64,000 bases of DNA from an uncultured Victivallales bacterium (lineage in GTDB: Bacteria; Verrucomicrobiota; Kiritimatiellia; UBA8416; CAYSRM01): positions 1,941 to 65,940 of the forward strand of contig CAYSRM010000001.1 of assembly GCA_964433435.1 (NCBI GenBank), in the 5' to 3' direction. A program made the translations under genes and the position numbers. The notes beneath the pieces were generated by a model. The model worked only from the letters and a program-made list of their open reading frames with translations. It did no database searches and was not told the DNA's origin. Shown here piece by piece: positions 6,673 through 61,339 of the stretch; within the stretch, counting starts at the first letter, position 1, and every line of letters begins with the position of its first letter.

Positions 6673-8487
6673 ATGGAAGACACAGCAACAGAACAGACAA
6701 CGCAGAAGAAGAAGATCGAGTTTGATTTGTCAGAGTTTACGGGAGACGACCGTGAACAGATGGCGCAGATGTACGAGGAGACGTTAAAAGACTTTGAACC
6801 CGGCTCTATAGTAACCGGAAAGGTCATGGAAGTTCATAATAACGAAGTCCTTGTAGATATCGGATATAAATCCGAGGGCCTTATTCCGTCAAATGAATTC
6901 GAGGAATTGAACGAAGTAAACGCCGGTGATGAGATATACGTGCTGTTATCGCAGATTGAAGATGATGACGGCATGGTTGTTCTCAGCAAGCAGAAGGCAG
7001 ACGAACAGATGCGCTGGGAGCGTATCAGGGAACAGCACGACGAAGGAACCGTAATAAAGGGCACTGTGAAAAGGCGGGTTAAAGGCGGTTTGATTGTCAG
7101 TGTAGAAGGTGTGGATGCATTTCTGCCTGGTTCGCACATTGATGTAACGCCTGTGCGGGATATGGATGGATGCATTGGCGAGACCTACGATTTCAAGATA
7201 ATCAAGATGAATCCGGAGCGGAAGAACATTATTGTTTCGCGTCGGCAGCTTATAGAGGACAGTCGCAAGGAGAAACGACAGCATCTGCTTTCCACGATAG
7301 AGCCGGAACAGACACGCACAGGTATTGTAAAGAATATCACTGATTTCGGGGTTTTTGTGGATCTGGACGGTCTGGACGGGTTGTTGCATATCACTGATAT
7401 GAGCTGGGGCAGGGTAAAGCATCCATCGGACATGGTTTCTGTGGGCGATACTCTTGAAGTTCGGATTCTTGACGTTGATTTTGAGCGCGAGCGTGTTTCG
7501 CTTGGCCTGAAGCAGAAGGACGCTAATCCATGGAAGGATGTGGCTTCCAAGTATCCTGTAGGAAGCCGGCTTCGTGGGAAGGTTGTGAACATAGTGCCTT
7601 ATGGCGCTTTTGTTGAACTTGAGGAGGGTGTTGAAGGGCTGGTTCACGTATCCGAGATTTCCTGGACCAAGCGTATAGTGAGGGCTTCGGATGTTCTTTC
7701 GCTCGGCGATGAAGTGGATGTTGTTGTGCTGGACATCAACGAGCAGGATCAGAAGATTGCCCTTGGAATGCGTCAGACGGAGGAAAATCCGTGGGATACG
7801 GTACAGGCGCGATATCCTGTTGGAACGCGTGTGAAGGGTGTGGTTCGCAACTTTACAACGTACGGAGCGTTCCTTGAGTTGGAAGACGGGATTGACGGTA
7901 TGATTCATGTATCGGATATGTCGTGGACCCGCAAGGTCAATCATCCTTCCGAGGTGCTTGAAAAGGGCCAGGAGGTTCAGGCTGTTGTTCTGGAAGTGGA
8001 CTCGGATAACAAGCGTATCAGTCTGGGTTTGAAGCAGGCGCATGATGACCCGTGGGCCACCATAGCCGACAAATACAAACCTGGTGATATTGTGAAGGGC
8101 GTGGTTTCCAAGATAGCTTCGTTTGGCGCTTTTGTTGAGCTTGAGGAAGGCGTTGACGGGCTTGTACATATATCACAGATAAGCGATGGGCATGTTGAGA
8201 AAGTTCAGGATGCTTTGCAGGTTGGCCAGGAGTTAGAGGCCCGGATAGTGAGAATTGACCGTGATGAGCGAAGGATCGGCCTGAGCATAAAAGCGGTATC
8301 TCTGCCTGATGAAGAGTTCCAGATGAAGCAGGAAGAGCTGATGGAAGGCTTGAAGCCGGGCGAGGATATGGTTGATCTTGCCGGAGCTTTTGAGGACGCT
8401 TTTGATGGTTTGATTGCCGAGGAACAGAGAGAGGAAGAAGAGCAGGAATGGCGTCCGGGTCGGCATAGCGACGAGGATTCGGAGTAA
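6673..8487 (+). CDS. rpsA: 30S ribosomal protein S1
   Basis: Six tandem S1 domains (repeated GxV.G.V…GAFV…G…GL.H.S). Acidic C-terminal tail. Confidence 0.95.
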   Translation: MEDTATEQTTQKKKIEFDLSEFTGDDREQMAQMYEETLKDFEPGSIVTGKVMEVHNNEVLVDIGYKSEGLIPSNEFEELNEVNAGDEIYVLLSQIEDDDGMVVLSKQKADEQMRWERIREQHDEGTVIKGTVKRRVKGGLIVSVEGVDAFLPGSHIDVTPVRDMDGCIGETYDFKIIKMNPERKNIIVSRRQLIEDSRKEKRQHLLSTIEPEQTRTGIVKNITDFGVFVDLDGLDGLLHITDMSWGRVKHPSDMVSVGDTLEVRILDVDFERERVSLGLKQKDANPWKDVASKYPVGSRLRGKVVNIVPYGAFVELEEGVEGLVHVSEISWTKRIVRASDVLSLGDEVDVVVLDINEQDQKIALGMRQTEENPWDTVQARYPVGTRVKGVVRNFTTYGAFLELEDGIDGMIHVSDMSWTRKVNHPSEVLEKGQEVQAVVLEVDSDNKRISLGLKQAHDDPWATIADKYKPGDIVKGVVSKIASFGAFVELEEGVDGLVHISQISDGHVEKVQDALQVGQELEARIVRIDRDERRIGLSIKAVSLPDEEFQMKQEELMEGLKPGEDMVDLAGAFEDAFDGLIAEEQREEEEQEWRPGRHSDEDSE

Positions 8488-8736
8488 AAGAAGTTTTGGG
8501 TCAGCGGGTGTCTACAACGGGGGTACTGATATGCCGCGTGACGAGTATCAACCCGCATTTCTTACAAGGAACCTGTTGTAGAGTGTGTGATGCGGGCTAG
8601 GGCGTTGTTTCTTCCGGAGACTTTGGATCTGCCTGTGCATGATAACGTGCCGTTGCCAGCCGAACATTGGAAAAGCATGTGACTCGCCGCAAGCTGCGCA
8701 CACTCTAAACGAAGTCTTGTGAGAAATTCGGGTCAG

Positions 8737-8773
8737 GTCAGGCGCATCGTTTATGATGCGCCTGACTTTTCTT
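8737..8773 (+). terminator. Intrinsic-terminator-like hairpin inside the tyrS leader, immediately upstream of the tyrS RBS: a candidate attenuator
   Basis: GTCAGGCGCATC-gtttat-GATGCGCCTGAC perfect 12-bp stem (8737-8766) followed by TTTTCTT. AGGAG RBS and ATG follow at 8791. Confidence 0.65.
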
Positions 8774-8790
8774 ATGCAGGAGCAGGGACA

Positions 8791-10059
8791 ATGGGTAATG
8801 TAATTGACGAACTGAAATGGCGAGGCCTGCTCGAAGAATTCAGCAGCGAAGAAATCGCAGACAGGCTTGATTCGCCGGTTACGGTATATGCCGGATTTGA
8901 TCCGACCAGTGACAGTCTTCAGGTTGGCAACTATGTGACGATCAAGGTTCTCTCGCATTTTCAGCAGCATGGCCACAAGGTTATTGCTTTGGTGGGCGGG
9001 GCAACCGGATTGATTGGCGATCCTTCTGGAAAGAGTTCTGAACGTGTTTTTCTTTCTCCTGAACAGATCCGAAAGAACGTGGAAGGTATACGTGAGAACC
9101 TTGCAAGGTTGATTGACTTTGATGATCCCCTGGCACCTGCCGTCATGGTTGACAATAACGAATGGCTCGGGGATTTCCGCATGATCGAATTTCTCCGGGA
9201 TGTGGGCAAGCATTTTCGGATGGGCGCTATGCTGGGAAAAGAGAGTGTTCGGGCGCGACTTAACAGTGAGGCTGGAATGAGTTTCGCAGAGTTCACCTAT
9301 CAGATTCTGCAGGCCTATGATTTTCTGAAGCTTTATGATAACTATAATTGTCTTATACAGCTTGGCGGTTCTGATCAGTGGGGTAACATTGTAGCCGGTA
9401 TAGATCTTGTGCGAAAGCTCAGGGGCTCGGAGGTATTTGGTGTTACTATGCCCCTGGTGTGCGACAGTGCAGGCAGAAAATTCGGCAAGAGCGAGGGTAA
9501 TGCTATATACCTTGCCTCAGACAAGACATCTTACTACGACTTTTACCAGTTTTTTGTGAGAACAGATGATGCGGATGTTATCCGGTTTCTGAAGATATTC
9601 ACTTTTCTTTCTAAAGCCGAAATAGAAGAGCTTGAAAGCGGTCTTAAGGCTGAACCGGAGAAACGGGAGGCTCAGAAGCGTCTGGCCGTGGAGATGACCC
9701 GTATAATGCACGGTGAGAAAGGCTTGAGAGCCGCACAGCAGGCGACGGATGTATTATTCGGGAGTTCGATGAAGGGGTTGAATGCTGATGAATTGCTGAG
9801 CATTTTTTCGCATGTGCAGTCTCAGAAGCTGTCCGCGGACCGGGTTGCCGGGTCGTCCGTGATTGATGTTGCCGCGGAGTCGGGATTCTGTAAGAGCAAG
9901 GGCCAGGCAAGAAGGCTTATATCAAGCGGCGGTTTTTACATTAACAATGAAAAAGTCGAATCGATAGATGCAAAGCTTGATGCGTCGGATGTAATAGACG
10001 ATCGCATTGTTGTTTTCCGGTCCGGGAAGAAGAATTTCTTTCTTGTTCATGTCACCTGA
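8791..10059 (+). CDS. tyrS: Tyrosine--tRNA ligase
   Basis: Class I motifs (…VYAGFDPTSDSLQVGNY… and KFGKS) and a C-terminal S4-like domain. Start moved to the ATG at 8791, because the listed ORF (8719) would translate the terminator hairpin. AGGAG lies 8 nt upstream. Confidence 0.93.
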   Translation: MGNVIDELKWRGLLEEFSSEEIADRLDSPVTVYAGFDPTSDSLQVGNYVTIKVLSHFQQHGHKVIALVGGATGLIGDPSGKSSERVFLSPEQIRKNVEGIRENLARLIDFDDPLAPAVMVDNNEWLGDFRMIEFLRDVGKHFRMGAMLGKESVRARLNSEAGMSFAEFTYQILQAYDFLKLYDNYNCLIQLGGSDQWGNIVAGIDLVRKLRGSEVFGVTMPLVCDSAGRKFGKSEGNAIYLASDKTSYYDFYQFFVRTDDADVIRFLKIFTFLSKAEIEELESGLKAEPEKREAQKRLAVEMTRIMHGEKGLRAAQQATDVLFGSSMKGLNADELLSIFSHVQSQKLSADRVAGSSVIDVAAESGFCKSKGQARRLISSGGFYINNEKVESIDAKLDASDVIDDRIVVFRSGKKNFFLVHVT

Positions 10060-23063: not shown

Positions 23064-24737
23064 ATGCGAGTCGAGCAGAGACGGCCACTTGTGGGAATAG
23101 TTCTGGCCTTTATGTCGGGTATTCTTTCTGCGCATATCGCGGGTGGAATGTTCCTGGCCACCTGGATGCCTGTGGTTGCTTGTGTATCCGCAGGTTGGCT
23201 GGCTTTTCTGGTTCAGCGCTGCTTTTCGGGGGTGCGCTGGATTGCTTCGGTGGCGTCTTGTTTCTCTATTTTTCTTTCTGTGTTTTTTTTCGGGTATGCC
23301 ATGGATCCGGGTGCAGAGAGCGCAGCCCGGCGTACGTCTATGGTTTCGATCCTGCAACTGGCGCAATCCGGCGAGACAGTCCGGATCAGCGGGACTGTTT
23401 CAAGTCATCCGGAAATGCGAGATCTGGAAGATTCAGGCCGCAGGATATGTACGTTTAAATTGTCTCCCTGCGGCCTTCAGGCCGGCGCTGAGGCCAGGAC
23501 GCTTAACGGCGTAACTATCCGGTGCAATCTTTTCGGATTGCCTGGCGCTCGAAATCCGCGTTACGGTGAGCGTTGGGAATTTACAGGAAGGCTTCGGGCG
23601 TTTCCACCGTTAAACATTGATGAAATTGAATTTCTGAAAAAAGACGGTGTTTCAAGGCATGGCAGGAAGCTTGCTCGACTTGCAGATCGTTTTTATGTCA
23701 GCGGCGGCATGAAGAGCGCCAGGTTTATGGGCAGAAGCGTCGGTTCGGGCTTGAAGCAGCGAATTTACGCAGCCAGGGCGGCAGGATCCGATTTGCTTGG
23801 CCTCGGTGTGGACGATTTTCCTCTGTCCGTATCGATCACCCGCGCTTTGCTTCTGGGTTATCGTTCCGGTGTGCCTCCGGAAGTCCGTTCCCTTTTTGCT
23901 GAGACCGGCACTTTGCATGTCTTTGCTATATCCGGCCTTCATGTGGGGATAGTCGCTGCGATTATTGTTTTCGTGATGAGCGCTGCAAAGATTCCAAGAA
24001 CTCGCTGGTTTTTTGTTCTCGCTCCTTCGCTTGGCCTTTATATTGTGTCGACCGGGGCGAGTCCAAGCGCTGTGCGCGCGGGAATTATGGCTCTTGCGTA
24101 CTTTGCCGCCTATTTGATAGGGAGGAAAGGCGACACCTTATCGGCTCTTGCGTTGTCAGCTCTTGTGATTCTGGTGATTTCGCCGGGGCGGATGACTTCG
24201 CCCGGTTTTATTTTTTCCTTTGTAGTAGTTTCGGGACTTCTTGCTATCTACCCGTTGTTTCATGTTAGGATTCGACATATTGTAAGCCCGGACCCGTTGC
24301 GGCTTGAGCCTGAGCGATGGTGGAAGCGCGCTTTGAGTGTTGGATGCGGGTATTGTCTTTCCGTAGCAGGGCTTTCGGTTTCTGCCTGGCTGGTGTCAGC
24401 TCCGCTGAGTGCGGTCTTCTTTCAAACGATAAGCCCTGTTGCATTGCTTGGAAACGTGTTTGTTACTCCTCTTACTTTTCTTATAGTGCTTACTGCTTCT
24501 CTTTCCGTCGTATGCGGTTCTGTTGCGGGATTTATTGGCAGCATATTGAATCATGCAAATGTTGCTTTCACGTCGGTATTGATATGGCTAACAGGCGGTA
24601 TTCACAGTCTTCCGCTGGCGACGTTGAAAGTTGACAGGCCGCCGATCGGGATAGTGGTCGGGTGGTATTTGCTGCTTGCTGTTGTGGTTGCTTACATGCG
24701 AGGGAAATCAGATCCTGGGCCGGTGGGGAAGCGGTAG
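23064..24737 (+). CDS. comEC: ComEC/Rec2-family competence channel. Competence domain only; no metallo-beta-lactamase domain
   Basis: DUF4131-like N-terminus plus polytopic competence domain (…GTLHVFAISGLHVGIV…). 557 aa. Confidence 0.78.
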   Translation: MRVEQRRPLVGIVLAFMSGILSAHIAGGMFLATWMPVVACVSAGWLAFLVQRCFSGVRWIASVASCFSIFLSVFFFGYAMDPGAESAARRTSMVSILQLAQSGETVRISGTVSSHPEMRDLEDSGRRICTFKLSPCGLQAGAEARTLNGVTIRCNLFGLPGARNPRYGERWEFTGRLRAFPPLNIDEIEFLKKDGVSRHGRKLARLADRFYVSGGMKSARFMGRSVGSGLKQRIYAARAAGSDLLGLGVDDFPLSVSITRALLLGYRSGVPPEVRSLFAETGTLHVFAISGLHVGIVAAIIVFVMSAAKIPRTRWFFVLAPSLGLYIVSTGASPSAVRAGIMALAYFAAYLIGRKGDTLSALALSALVILVISPGRMTSPGFIFSFVVVSGLLAIYPLFHVRIRHIVSPDPLRLEPERWWKRALSVGCGYCLSVAGLSVSAWLVSAPLSAVFFQTISPVALLGNVFVTPLTFLIVLTASLSVVCGSVAGFIGSILNHANVAFTSVLIWLTGGIHSLPLATLKVDRPPIGIVVGWYLLLAVVVAYMRGKSDPGPVGKR

Positions 24738-28927: not shown

Positions 28928-28980
28928 GCGGGTGTAGCTTAGTGGTAAAGCTTCCGCCTTCGTCCGGAGGCTACGGCGAG
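28928..28980 (+). pseudogene. 5' fragment of a tRNA-Gly-like gene. It has the acceptor 5' strand and D-arm but no T-arm or 3' acceptor strand
   Basis: The first 25 nt (gcgggtgtagcttagtggtaaagct) are identical to the intact tRNA-Gly 130 nt downstream. The following arm is degenerate and no ttcgattcc or cacccgc follows. Confidence 0.6.
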
Positions 28981-29057: not shown

Positions 29058-29131
29058 GCGGGTGTAGCTTAGTGGTAAAGCTCCAGCCTTCCAAGCTGGC
29101 TACGCGGGTTCGATTCCCGCCACCCGCTCCA
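29058..29131 (+). tRNA. tRNA-Gly (anticodon TCC), CCA encoded
   Basis: Manual fold: acceptor gcgggtg/cacccgc, D-arm gctt-agtggta-aagc, anticodon stem ccagc/gctgg with loop cttccaa, T-arm gcggg-ttcgatt-cccgc, discriminator t, cca. Confidence 0.9.
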
Positions 29132-60875: not shown

Positions 60876-61339
60876 AAGTTAACAACTCCATTTTTTTCGT
60901 ATTTTGAAAGTCTGGAATATCCTCTTTAATGTTGGAGTATGCAAGGAAAAGTTTATGCGTCGGGCAATTGGTTTGGATGCTTGCCGCAGCGTGTAAGATT
61001 GAGCAGACTGCCGCACCTGATGCAGGTCCGCTTGAGGCGGGAAAGGCTGCTAGCCCGCATATCTCACAGAATTCCTGCTGCGAGCGCGGATAGCGCCACT
61101 GCGACGGCACGAATTGACAAAATGCCAGATTGCAGTATGTCTATACGGCTGCTCCGGCGTTTCACCAATTGGCGCCCCCGCGGCAGCGCTTTCCACGCTC
61201 TTCCGCCGGATGGCGGACAGGCTACTACGAAATCCTGTGAATGGTTGATCTTGCGGCATCGTTGTCGCGATCATTGTCTTGATTTTCGTCGACAAGGACC
61301 GGGATAAAGATTGGGACGAAGATAGGGGAGCGGTCCGTG

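Follow-up and report, generated by a model that had tools for sequence, protein, structure and literature searches.

A conserved predicted terminator and a MITE-like insertion in the rpsA–tyrS spacer of an uncultured Victivallales bacterium

The rpsA–tyrS locus in the 64,000-nt stretch of DNA analyzed here (the window) consists of a conserved predicted terminator that would also serve as tyrS attenuator, and of a MITE-like insertion, each of a known kind. In the reading that we favor, and to which we give good though not full confidence, these two parts are unrelated: a leaky rpsA terminator would act as a constitutive attenuator in front of tyrS, and a lineage-specific MITE-like element would have entered the rpsA 3′UTR. 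The tyrS leader had been proposed as a candidate T-box or as another tyrosine- or tRNA-responsive leader. This proposal was not upheld: neither an Rfam match nor a T-box motif was found in the leader, the helices that would form the sensor belong to inserted DNA, and the orthologous spacers are short. From the attenuation architecture described in the original prediction, what stands is a conserved terminator abutting the tyrS ribosome-binding site (RBS), with which some attenuation is most likely; the tyrosine or tRNA sensor drops out.

The rpsA–tyrS Locus and Its Spacer

Genes rpsA and tyrS are both encoded on the + strand and are separated by a spacer of 303 nt (8488–8790; Table 1). Their identity as the flanking genes was borne out by Pfam domains, and the tyrosyl-tRNA synthetase (TyrRS) of the window has a class-I W/Y synthetase core. 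The nearest relatives of this TyrRS belong to uncultured Victivallales (Lentisphaerota, PVC group), with loci L001–L003 at 86–89% amino acid identity; the TyrRS of locus L083 is 76% identical to that of the window, and the next tier, at 54–66% identity, comprises Lentisphaerae and Kiritimatiellia. In 55 of 74 PVC loci, rpsA is the gene immediately preceding tyrS, and the usual spacer in these relatives is 75–100 nt long. Spacer length amounts to 103 nt in L083, 122 nt in L001, 273 nt in L002, 303 nt in the window, and 363 nt in L003, and the only part common to these spacers is formed by the terminator and the RBS. When the leader was compared with all loci using nhmmer, alignment was obtained in L001–L003 only and was confined to the terminal ~60 nt, which hold the terminator and the RBS.

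The proximal, native part of the spacer (8488–8550) could be partially aligned with the L001 spacer (GGGTGT-ACAACGGG...ATGCCGCGT), and its alignment with L002 and L003 was unconvincing. A Tyr-rich leader peptide was considered and rejected, because the sole small ORF in this native part (ATGCCGCGT...) has 16 codons with one Tyr. In L001 the same small ORF has six codons and no Tyr, and it is missing from L002 and L003. A scan of the + strand of the spacer, using the sigma-70 consensus as the only model, revealed no promoter-like site, promoters of PVC bacteria being poorly known. In comparison with shuffled sequences, the whole spacer showed lower folding energy on the + strand (z −2.97) and also on the − strand (z −3.85). 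Better folding than shuffles on both strands points to a DNA palindrome and not to a strand-specific RNA.

Table 1. Features of the rpsA–tyrS region, with positions counted from the first nucleotide of the window.
Feature	Positions	Strand	Description
rpsA, ribosomal protein S1	6673..8487	+	604 aa, six S1 domains; Pfam S1 E=1e-101; from the ORF list
Native proximal part of rpsA 3′UTR/spacer	8488..8550	+	Predicted local hairpin at ~8500–8542
Putative target-site duplication, left copy	8549..8550	.	CA; or TCAA 8548–8551 if 4 bp
MITE-like palindromic element, 183 nt	8551..8733	.	Terminal inverted repeats (TIRs) 8551–8568 and 8716–8733; inner arms 8579–8587 and 8699–8707
Putative target-site duplication, right copy	8734..8735	.	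CA; or TCAG 8733–8736
Predicted intrinsic-terminator hairpin	8735..8768	+	Perfect 12-bp stem 8737–8748/8755–8766, loop 8749–8754; conserved, with covarying flanks
Terminator U-tract	8767..8773	+	TTTTCTT, immediately 3′ of the stem
tyrS Shine-Dalgarno (SD) sequence	8778..8782	+	AGGAG, 8 nt, then ATG at 8791
tyrS, tyrosine–tRNA ligase	8791..10059	+	422 aa; Pfam tRNA-synt_1b E=9e-81; SYY C-terminal and S4 domains

The Terminator Hairpin and Its Conservation

The hairpin in front of tyrS is formed by the arms GTCAGGCGCATC (8737–8748) and GATGCGCCTGAC (8755–8766) closing the loop GTTTAT, and it contains a near-invariant core in which GGCG (8741–8744) is paired with CGCC (8759–8762). Having a stem of 12–15 bp with eight G–C pairs and a loop of 4–6 nt, it has the form of an intrinsic (Rho-independent) terminator, with a folding energy of −25.3 kcal/mol. 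The original prediction had located the 12-bp hairpin and its U-tract before the RBS with exact coordinates (8737–8773, followed by AGGAG-N8-ATG). A strict search for perfect stems of at least 8 bp followed by a T-rich tail identified 8737–8773 as the only strong canonical terminator on both strands of the 64-kb window. The 22 nt that lie between the terminator stem and the tyrS ATG are made up of the U-tract, the SD sequence, and the spacing. The RBS motif TTCTTATGC(A/G)GGAGC is kept in L002 and L003, and its L001 version is TTCTTATACAGG-GC.

A single hairpin with a folding energy of −20 kcal/mol or lower followed by a T-tract was present in about 49 of 56 spacers, the window included, and the hairpin is also kept in L083. 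The GGCG:CGCC core was found in about 40 of 43 distinct hairpin sequences; those of L034, L042, and L046 deviate from it, with compensation. The hairpins were aligned by anchoring them independently on GGCG and on CGCC, and pairs were then counted; because of this anchoring, the four core pairs come out as invariant partly by construction. The eight pairs that flank the core covary, with 95% of the cells paired and both-side changes in 8 of 12 pairs. The covariation score was 0.63 versus 0.22 for shuffles, none of 500 reaching 0.63, and slid controls scored 0.03–0.22. Comparison of the leaders of tyrS orthologs, which had been suggested as a check, lent support through this covariation to the terminator hairpin, and showed the structured region upstream of it to be an unconserved insertion.

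Outside the annotated spacers, 48 terminator-like hairpins were scanned, and the GGCG..CGCC core was detected in six and in none of the other 42. These six are the rpsA–tyrS hairpin itself, located on the opposite strand in L037, L039, and L072, on both strands in L056, and on the + strand in L058, the L056 and L058 loci being cut before rpsA. Since the core is confined to them among the scanned hairpins, the rpsA–tyrS hairpins can be regarded as orthologous and not as a generic compositional type. In the preferred reading, the terminator is ancient and was inherited vertically across Lentisphaerota and Kiritimatiellota.

The position of the hairpin relative to the two genes differs between groups. 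In a Lentisphaerae-type class that includes the window, with about 30 relatives of tight geometry, the hairpin ends 13–52 nt before the tyrS ATG (median ~22), and in most Kiritimatiellia it starts 1–8 nt past the rpsA stop codon, with tyrS located 50–140 nt beyond. Hairpins of the tight class have weaker T-tracts than those with a distant tyrS (6.1 versus 7.5 T per 10 nt; Mann-Whitney p=0.006, with loci taken as independent despite their shared phylogeny), which is in line with leakiness. Hairpin loops are unconserved and vary from 3 to 12 nt; those of the window and its nearest relatives (GTTTAT, GGTGAT, GATTGT, and AATTGT) have no conserved GUA, and a role of the hairpin as anticodon-arm mimic for TyrRS was rejected for this reason. 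A DNA-level operator with palindromic half-sites was also rejected, as anything from 8 to more than 20 nt may separate GGCG from CGCC.

The hairpin associates with rpsA rather than with tyrS. No such hairpin was found in at least 11 tyrS loci lacking an upstream rpsA, and on this basis it was assigned to rpsA and not to tyrS. In L038, L043, L057, and L061, where 500–770 nt separate rpsA from tyrS, the hairpin remains 5–46 nt past the rpsA stop codon; in L038 and L043 the gap between both genes includes a 23S_rRNA_IVP gene.

A 183-nt MITE-Like Element Upstream of the Terminator

The segment 8551–8733 is bounded by 18-nt terminal inverted repeats (ACCCGCATTTCTTACAAG/CTTGTGAGAAATTCGGGT) that are 89% complementary. 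Folded alone, it forms one long imperfect hairpin of −71.8 kcal/mol (z −4.55), and the pairing of 8551–8589 with 8699–8733 dominates the minimum-free-energy fold of the whole spacer. With 8551–8733 removed, the spacer folds as two small hairpins, one of which is the terminator. The upstream region had been described as a set of nested helices. All strings quoted for them are present in the sequence, and the pairings CTACAACGG (8512–8520) with CCTGTTGTAG (8572–8581) and AGAGTGTG (8580–8587) with CACACTCT (8699–8706), quoted as the second and third helices, were recovered as such; the strings CCCGCAT and ATGCGGG of the first helix also exist, at 8552–8558 and 8590–8596 instead of across 8560–8614. 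The helices are not simply nested: the first two cross, and both compete with the longer pairing between 8551–8589 and 8699–8733, which had been overlooked. Segment 8551–8733 contains the first and third helices and one strand of the second, and since this strand lies within the inserted element, the pairing of the second helix with the native leader is fortuitous.

L001 and L083 have no copy of segment 8551–8733 at the orthologous site. Deletion of 8551–8733 together with one CA yields GAGTATCAGGTCAGGCGC, which matches GATTTGTCAGGTCAGGCGC in L002 and L003, and L001 has TTAA at the point corresponding to the insertion site. The CA/CA flanks of 8551–8733 are two bases long, too short to exclude chance, and related copies have CTAG/CTAG or TTAA/TTAA. 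The rpsA–tyrS spacer of L003 holds a different palindromic insert, of 184 nt, that recurs at 61050–61208 of the window (nhmmer E=3e-32); a partial copy of this L003-type repeat was found in the unrelated metagenome contig L081 and a 53-nt mini-copy in L082. The first ~36 nt of 8551–8733 (its left arm) align to this repeat family (window 61054, L003, L081, and L082), from which they differ mostly by transitions. The family has the termini CCCGCAT(A/T)TCT(C/T)ACA, flanked by CTAG at three ends or by TTAA at two ends. No second copy of the exact 8551–8733 subfamily was detected by BLAST and nhmmer in the window and the 84 loci, or in one metagenome scan with a degenerate terminus pattern, which returned only two contigs. 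Through its arm, 8551–8733 is homologous to this dispersed repeat family, and insertion polymorphism at the orthologous site accounts for the leader structure outside the conserved part.

IS5-type transposition generates a 4-bp YTAR target duplication. The CTAG/TTAA flanks fit this type of duplication and an IS630/Tc1-mariner-type TA duplication equally well. A transposase would have mobilized segment 8551–8733; the window itself showed none with corresponding ends. For RUP elements, mobilization by IS630-Spn1 with TA as target has been proposed (PMC2229807). Like the bacterial MITEs RUP, Correia/NEMIS, and ERIC (PMC2229807), 8551–8733 falls within ~100–200 nt, carries TIRs, is non-coding and intergenic, and would form a long hairpin when co-transcribed, and the TA-containing CTAG/TTAA flanks of its related copies resemble the TA targets of RUP. 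It differs in being flanked by CA and not by TA, and the likeness is one of architecture, no sequence similarity being claimed. By analogy with Correia and ERIC elements (PMC2229807), 8551–8733 could affect mRNA processing. Within the rpsA 3′UTR, upstream of the terminator, the insert is probably neutral.

Searches for a T-Box

Analysis of the whole window with cmscan at gathering thresholds returned two tRNAs only and no T-box. In the interval 8400–8900, with the threshold relaxed to E≤10, the only match was sR38 (C/D-box, E=1.4, attributable to chance) inside the end of the rpsA coding region; the Rfam check for a T-box (RF00230) that had been recommended thus gave nothing in the spacer. No Rfam match was obtained in the spacer of 16 related or orthologous loci either. 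The original prediction had reported that the canonical T-box sequence could not be found, and this was confirmed: AGGGTGGNACCGCG has no match within 8488–8790 at up to three mismatches, and its count over the whole window (15) equals that expected by chance (15.7). The conserved T-box sequence AGGGUGGNACCGCG, which in T-boxes forms the bulge of the antiterminator and there base-pairs with the NCCA terminus of the tRNA, was likewise not found within 8488–8790 at up to three mismatches. A UAC/UAU specifier in a conserved Stem-I-like loop was not found, the conserved part of the leader being its last ~60 nt. The alternative pairing that had been proposed through the duplicated GTCAGG only lengthens or displaces the stem of the terminator without creating an antiterminator, and the duplication is also present in L002 and L003.

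A divergent, phylum-specific T-box, in which binding of uncharged tRNA(Tyr) to a Stem-I-like element within 8500–8730 would stabilize an antiterminator that competes with 8737–8766, has in its favor a strongly structured leader and a terminator that immediately precedes the RBS, the gene being one for an aminoacyl-tRNA synthetase. As in the T-box family (RF00230), there is thus a leader upstream of such a gene with a terminator helix near the RBS, but the hairpin co-occurs with rpsA, not with tyrS, and is absent where tyrS has no rpsA upstream. The locus also differs from that family: the covariance model has no match, even at E≤10 or in the 16 related loci, the leader lacks the T-box sequence, and neither an antiterminator nor a conserved Stem I or specifier was recognized. 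The structured part is the insertion that is missing in L001 and L083, and the typical spacer in the clade, of 75–100 nt and taken as ancestral, could not accommodate both a Stem I and an antiterminator. The host, moreover, is a PVC bacterium and not a Firmicute, and a survey of T-boxes reported none from Chlamydiae or Planctomycetes (PMC2494555). We leave this reading hardly any probability, and a divergent T-box is effectively excluded at the level of sequence comparison.

Proposed Mechanism and Alternatives

The preferred reading, a leaky rpsA terminator plus an unrelated insertion, can be laid out as follows. Hairpin 8735–8768 with its U-tract would terminate most rpsA transcripts. Termination would be partial, and tyrS would be transcribed by polymerases reading through from the rpsA promoter or from one located further upstream. 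As the 22 nt after the stem are filled by the U-tract, the SD sequence, and the spacing, there is no room for a tyrS promoter downstream of the hairpin; since, in addition, no promoter-like site was found, tyrS is probably transcribed by read-through. The hairpin would then work as a constitutive intra-operon attenuator giving a high-S1/low-TyrRS ratio, with no sensor for tyrosine or tRNA. The MITE-like element would have been inserted 1–3 nt upstream of the terminator stem, duplicating a short target; its long arms would produce most of the supposed nested helices and, once transcribed, would leave the rpsA 3′UTR with a further hairpin, long and imperfect.

In Escherichia coli, intra-operon terminators are known between rplL and rpoB (an attenuator) and between rpsU and dnaG (T1). 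As in those cases, a hairpin and U-tract lie here between two co-directional genes, the first encoding a ribosomal protein and very highly expressed, the second a housekeeping gene with lower expression; space for a promoter of the second gene is lacking, and there is no ligand-sensing domain. In contrast to them, the pair here is rpsA–tyrS in a PVC phylum, read-through is deduced from the arrangement of the locus, and the stem core is unusually conserved.

This conserved core could point to a regulated attenuator, in which a factor such as S1, TyrRS (by means of an S4-like domain), or a different RNA-binding protein would recognize GGCG:CGCC and modulate termination or tyrS translation. Four consecutive pairs are near-invariant over two phyla while the neighboring pairs all covary, a conservation that exceeds the need of a plain terminator; the core is specific to the rpsA–tyrS locus among terminator-like hairpins, and the distance from hairpin to RBS is held at ~20 nt in one class. 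We nevertheless regard recognition by a factor as unlikely. The loop is conserved neither in sequence nor in length and offers no anticodon-like GUA, the hairpin of Kiritimatiellia is located at the rpsA stop codon, 50–140 nt from tyrS, and a conserved alternative (antiterminator) pairing was not seen; selection against weakening a GC core beside the U-tract may suffice for the invariance. Equally improbable to us is that the hairpin is a complete terminator or a 3′-end stabilizer of rpsA only, with tyrS mRNA arising from processing or from a non-sigma-70 promoter overlapping the hairpin; in the processing variant, rare long transcripts would be cut and the hairpin would then be a 5′ or 3′ stability element. 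The stem is strong, at −25 kcal/mol, and a promoter scan based on the sigma-70 consensus only has limited reach in PVC bacteria, whose promoters are poorly known. Few intrinsic terminators were reportedly predicted in a verrucomicrobial genome (PMC3152330), so that the present one may be a peculiarity of a gene with high expression. Against a complete terminator, the distance of 22 nt from stem to ATG is already taken by the U-tract and the SD sequence, a promoter within a 12-bp GC stem is unlikely, and about 30 relatives share the tight geometry.

As for segment 8551–8733, it could be seen as a gene for a structured small RNA, or as a cis-acting regulatory RNA with a function, instead of a selfish insertion. 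Its fold is much better than that of shuffles (z −4.55), and transcripts of MITEs alter the stability of neighboring mRNAs in other bacteria (PMC2229807). Both strands, however, fold equally well, the segment is conserved in no relative, it shows no Rfam match and no promoter-like site, and terminal inverted repeats and a putative flanking duplication are present. A function of this kind is accordingly very improbable in our view, and a MITE-like insertion remains the preferred reading of 8551–8733.

Significance

The main value of this analysis is corrective, in that a plausible riboswitch candidate resolved into two ordinary parts when orthologous loci were compared. Palindromic mobile repeats located in leaders can imitate nested regulatory helices. 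The rpsA–tyrS pair with a single terminator hairpin of invariant core, common to Lentisphaerota and Kiritimatiellota, is a modest positive result. Since intrinsic terminators are reported to be scarce among the predictions for a verrucomicrobial genome (PMC3152330), and PVC bacteria may use few of them, the conservation of this terminator is mildly notable, and the rpsA–tyrS hairpin offers a clean test case for partial termination in PVC bacteria. Were the core an operator recognized by a factor, with regulated read-through or translation of tyrS, it would represent a PVC-specific means of tying an aminoacyl-tRNA synthetase to the production of ribosomes, as a substitute for T-boxes. Neither the terminator nor the repeat family alters current concepts. 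The family of small inverted-repeat elements with CTAG/TTAA flanks in uncultured Victivallales was previously undescribed.

Palindromic Elements, Other Repeats and a Putative Mobile Cassette in rpsA–tyrS Spacers

Among the nearest relatives' tyrS loci, L003 carries a full palindromic element, and the diverged sequence that lies at the equivalent position in L002 is possibly a decayed copy. A copy of the same repeat, which is about 184 nt long, was also detected in the window, in an intergenic position (61050–61208; nhmmer E=3e-32 against the L003 repeat, best match on the - strand). CTAG flanks the intact end of this copy, and its far end is degenerate and includes an additional hairpin of about 20 nt. 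In the metagenome contig L082, the mini-copy has TTAA on either side. An additional end-like sequence, GGAATGCGGG abutting TTAA (more precisely, GGAAATGCGGG then TTAA), was observed 300 nt downstream of it, coinciding with the stop codon of an ORF that matches DUF1232 (Pfam E=8e-11), the whole span being 729–1087. This ORF may be a passenger, or the match may be due to chance.

Palindromic and tandem repeats of other kinds lengthen many of the Kiritimatiellia-type rpsA–tyrS spacers (loci L019, L036, L037, L039, L040, L041, L045, L046, L049, L050, L056, and L072). It seems that this spacer is a frequent landing site, or that the genomes concerned are generally rich in such repeats. In two further loci (L038 and L043), a 23S rRNA-intervening-sequence protein gene (PF05635, E=1e-31) separates the rpsA terminator from tyrS. 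Long tandem heptamer arrays in inverted orientation border this gene on both sides (GTTACAG/GTTACAC upstream and CTGTAAC/GTGTAAC downstream), and it resembles a mobile cassette.

Palindromic elements and repeats in and related to rpsA–tyrS spacers
Feature	Sequence	Location	Remarks
Full palindromic element	GCTAGCCCGCATATCTC...GAGATATGCGGGCTAGC	L003 1403–1586	Within rpsA–tyrS spacer
Diverged, shorter sequence	Ends GCCAGCCTG...CAGGCTGGC	L002 about 2800–2900	Position equivalent to L003 element
Mini-copy (53 nt), both ends present	CCCGCATTTCT...AGAAATGCGCG	L082 729–781	Contig Ga0315536_1075767
Repeated units	AATCGA/TCGATT	Kiritimatiellia-type spacers	Example
Palindromes	GTTGAGAGTTGAACG	Kiritimatiellia-type spacers	Example
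Tandem repeats	CCATCACT	Kiritimatiellia-type spacers	Example
Palindromes	GGGTTCAGGG/CCTGAACCC	Kiritimatiellia-type spacers	Example

Other Features of the Window

The first 25 nt or so of tRNA-Gly(TCC) are duplicated at 28929–28955 (GCGGGTGTAGCTTAGTGGTAAAGCT), some 130 nt upstream of the actual tRNA gene (29058–29131). ARAGORN made no tRNA call at 28929–28955. The duplicated stretch may be a decayed second copy or a tRNA fragment that an integration event left behind.

Under strict criteria, the rpsA terminator was the sole strong canonical intrinsic terminator detected in the whole 64 kb. Together with the few weak candidates of 7–8 bp (at 24186, 26297, 42886, 62585, and 62843), this sequence survey suggests that canonical terminators are little used by the organism.
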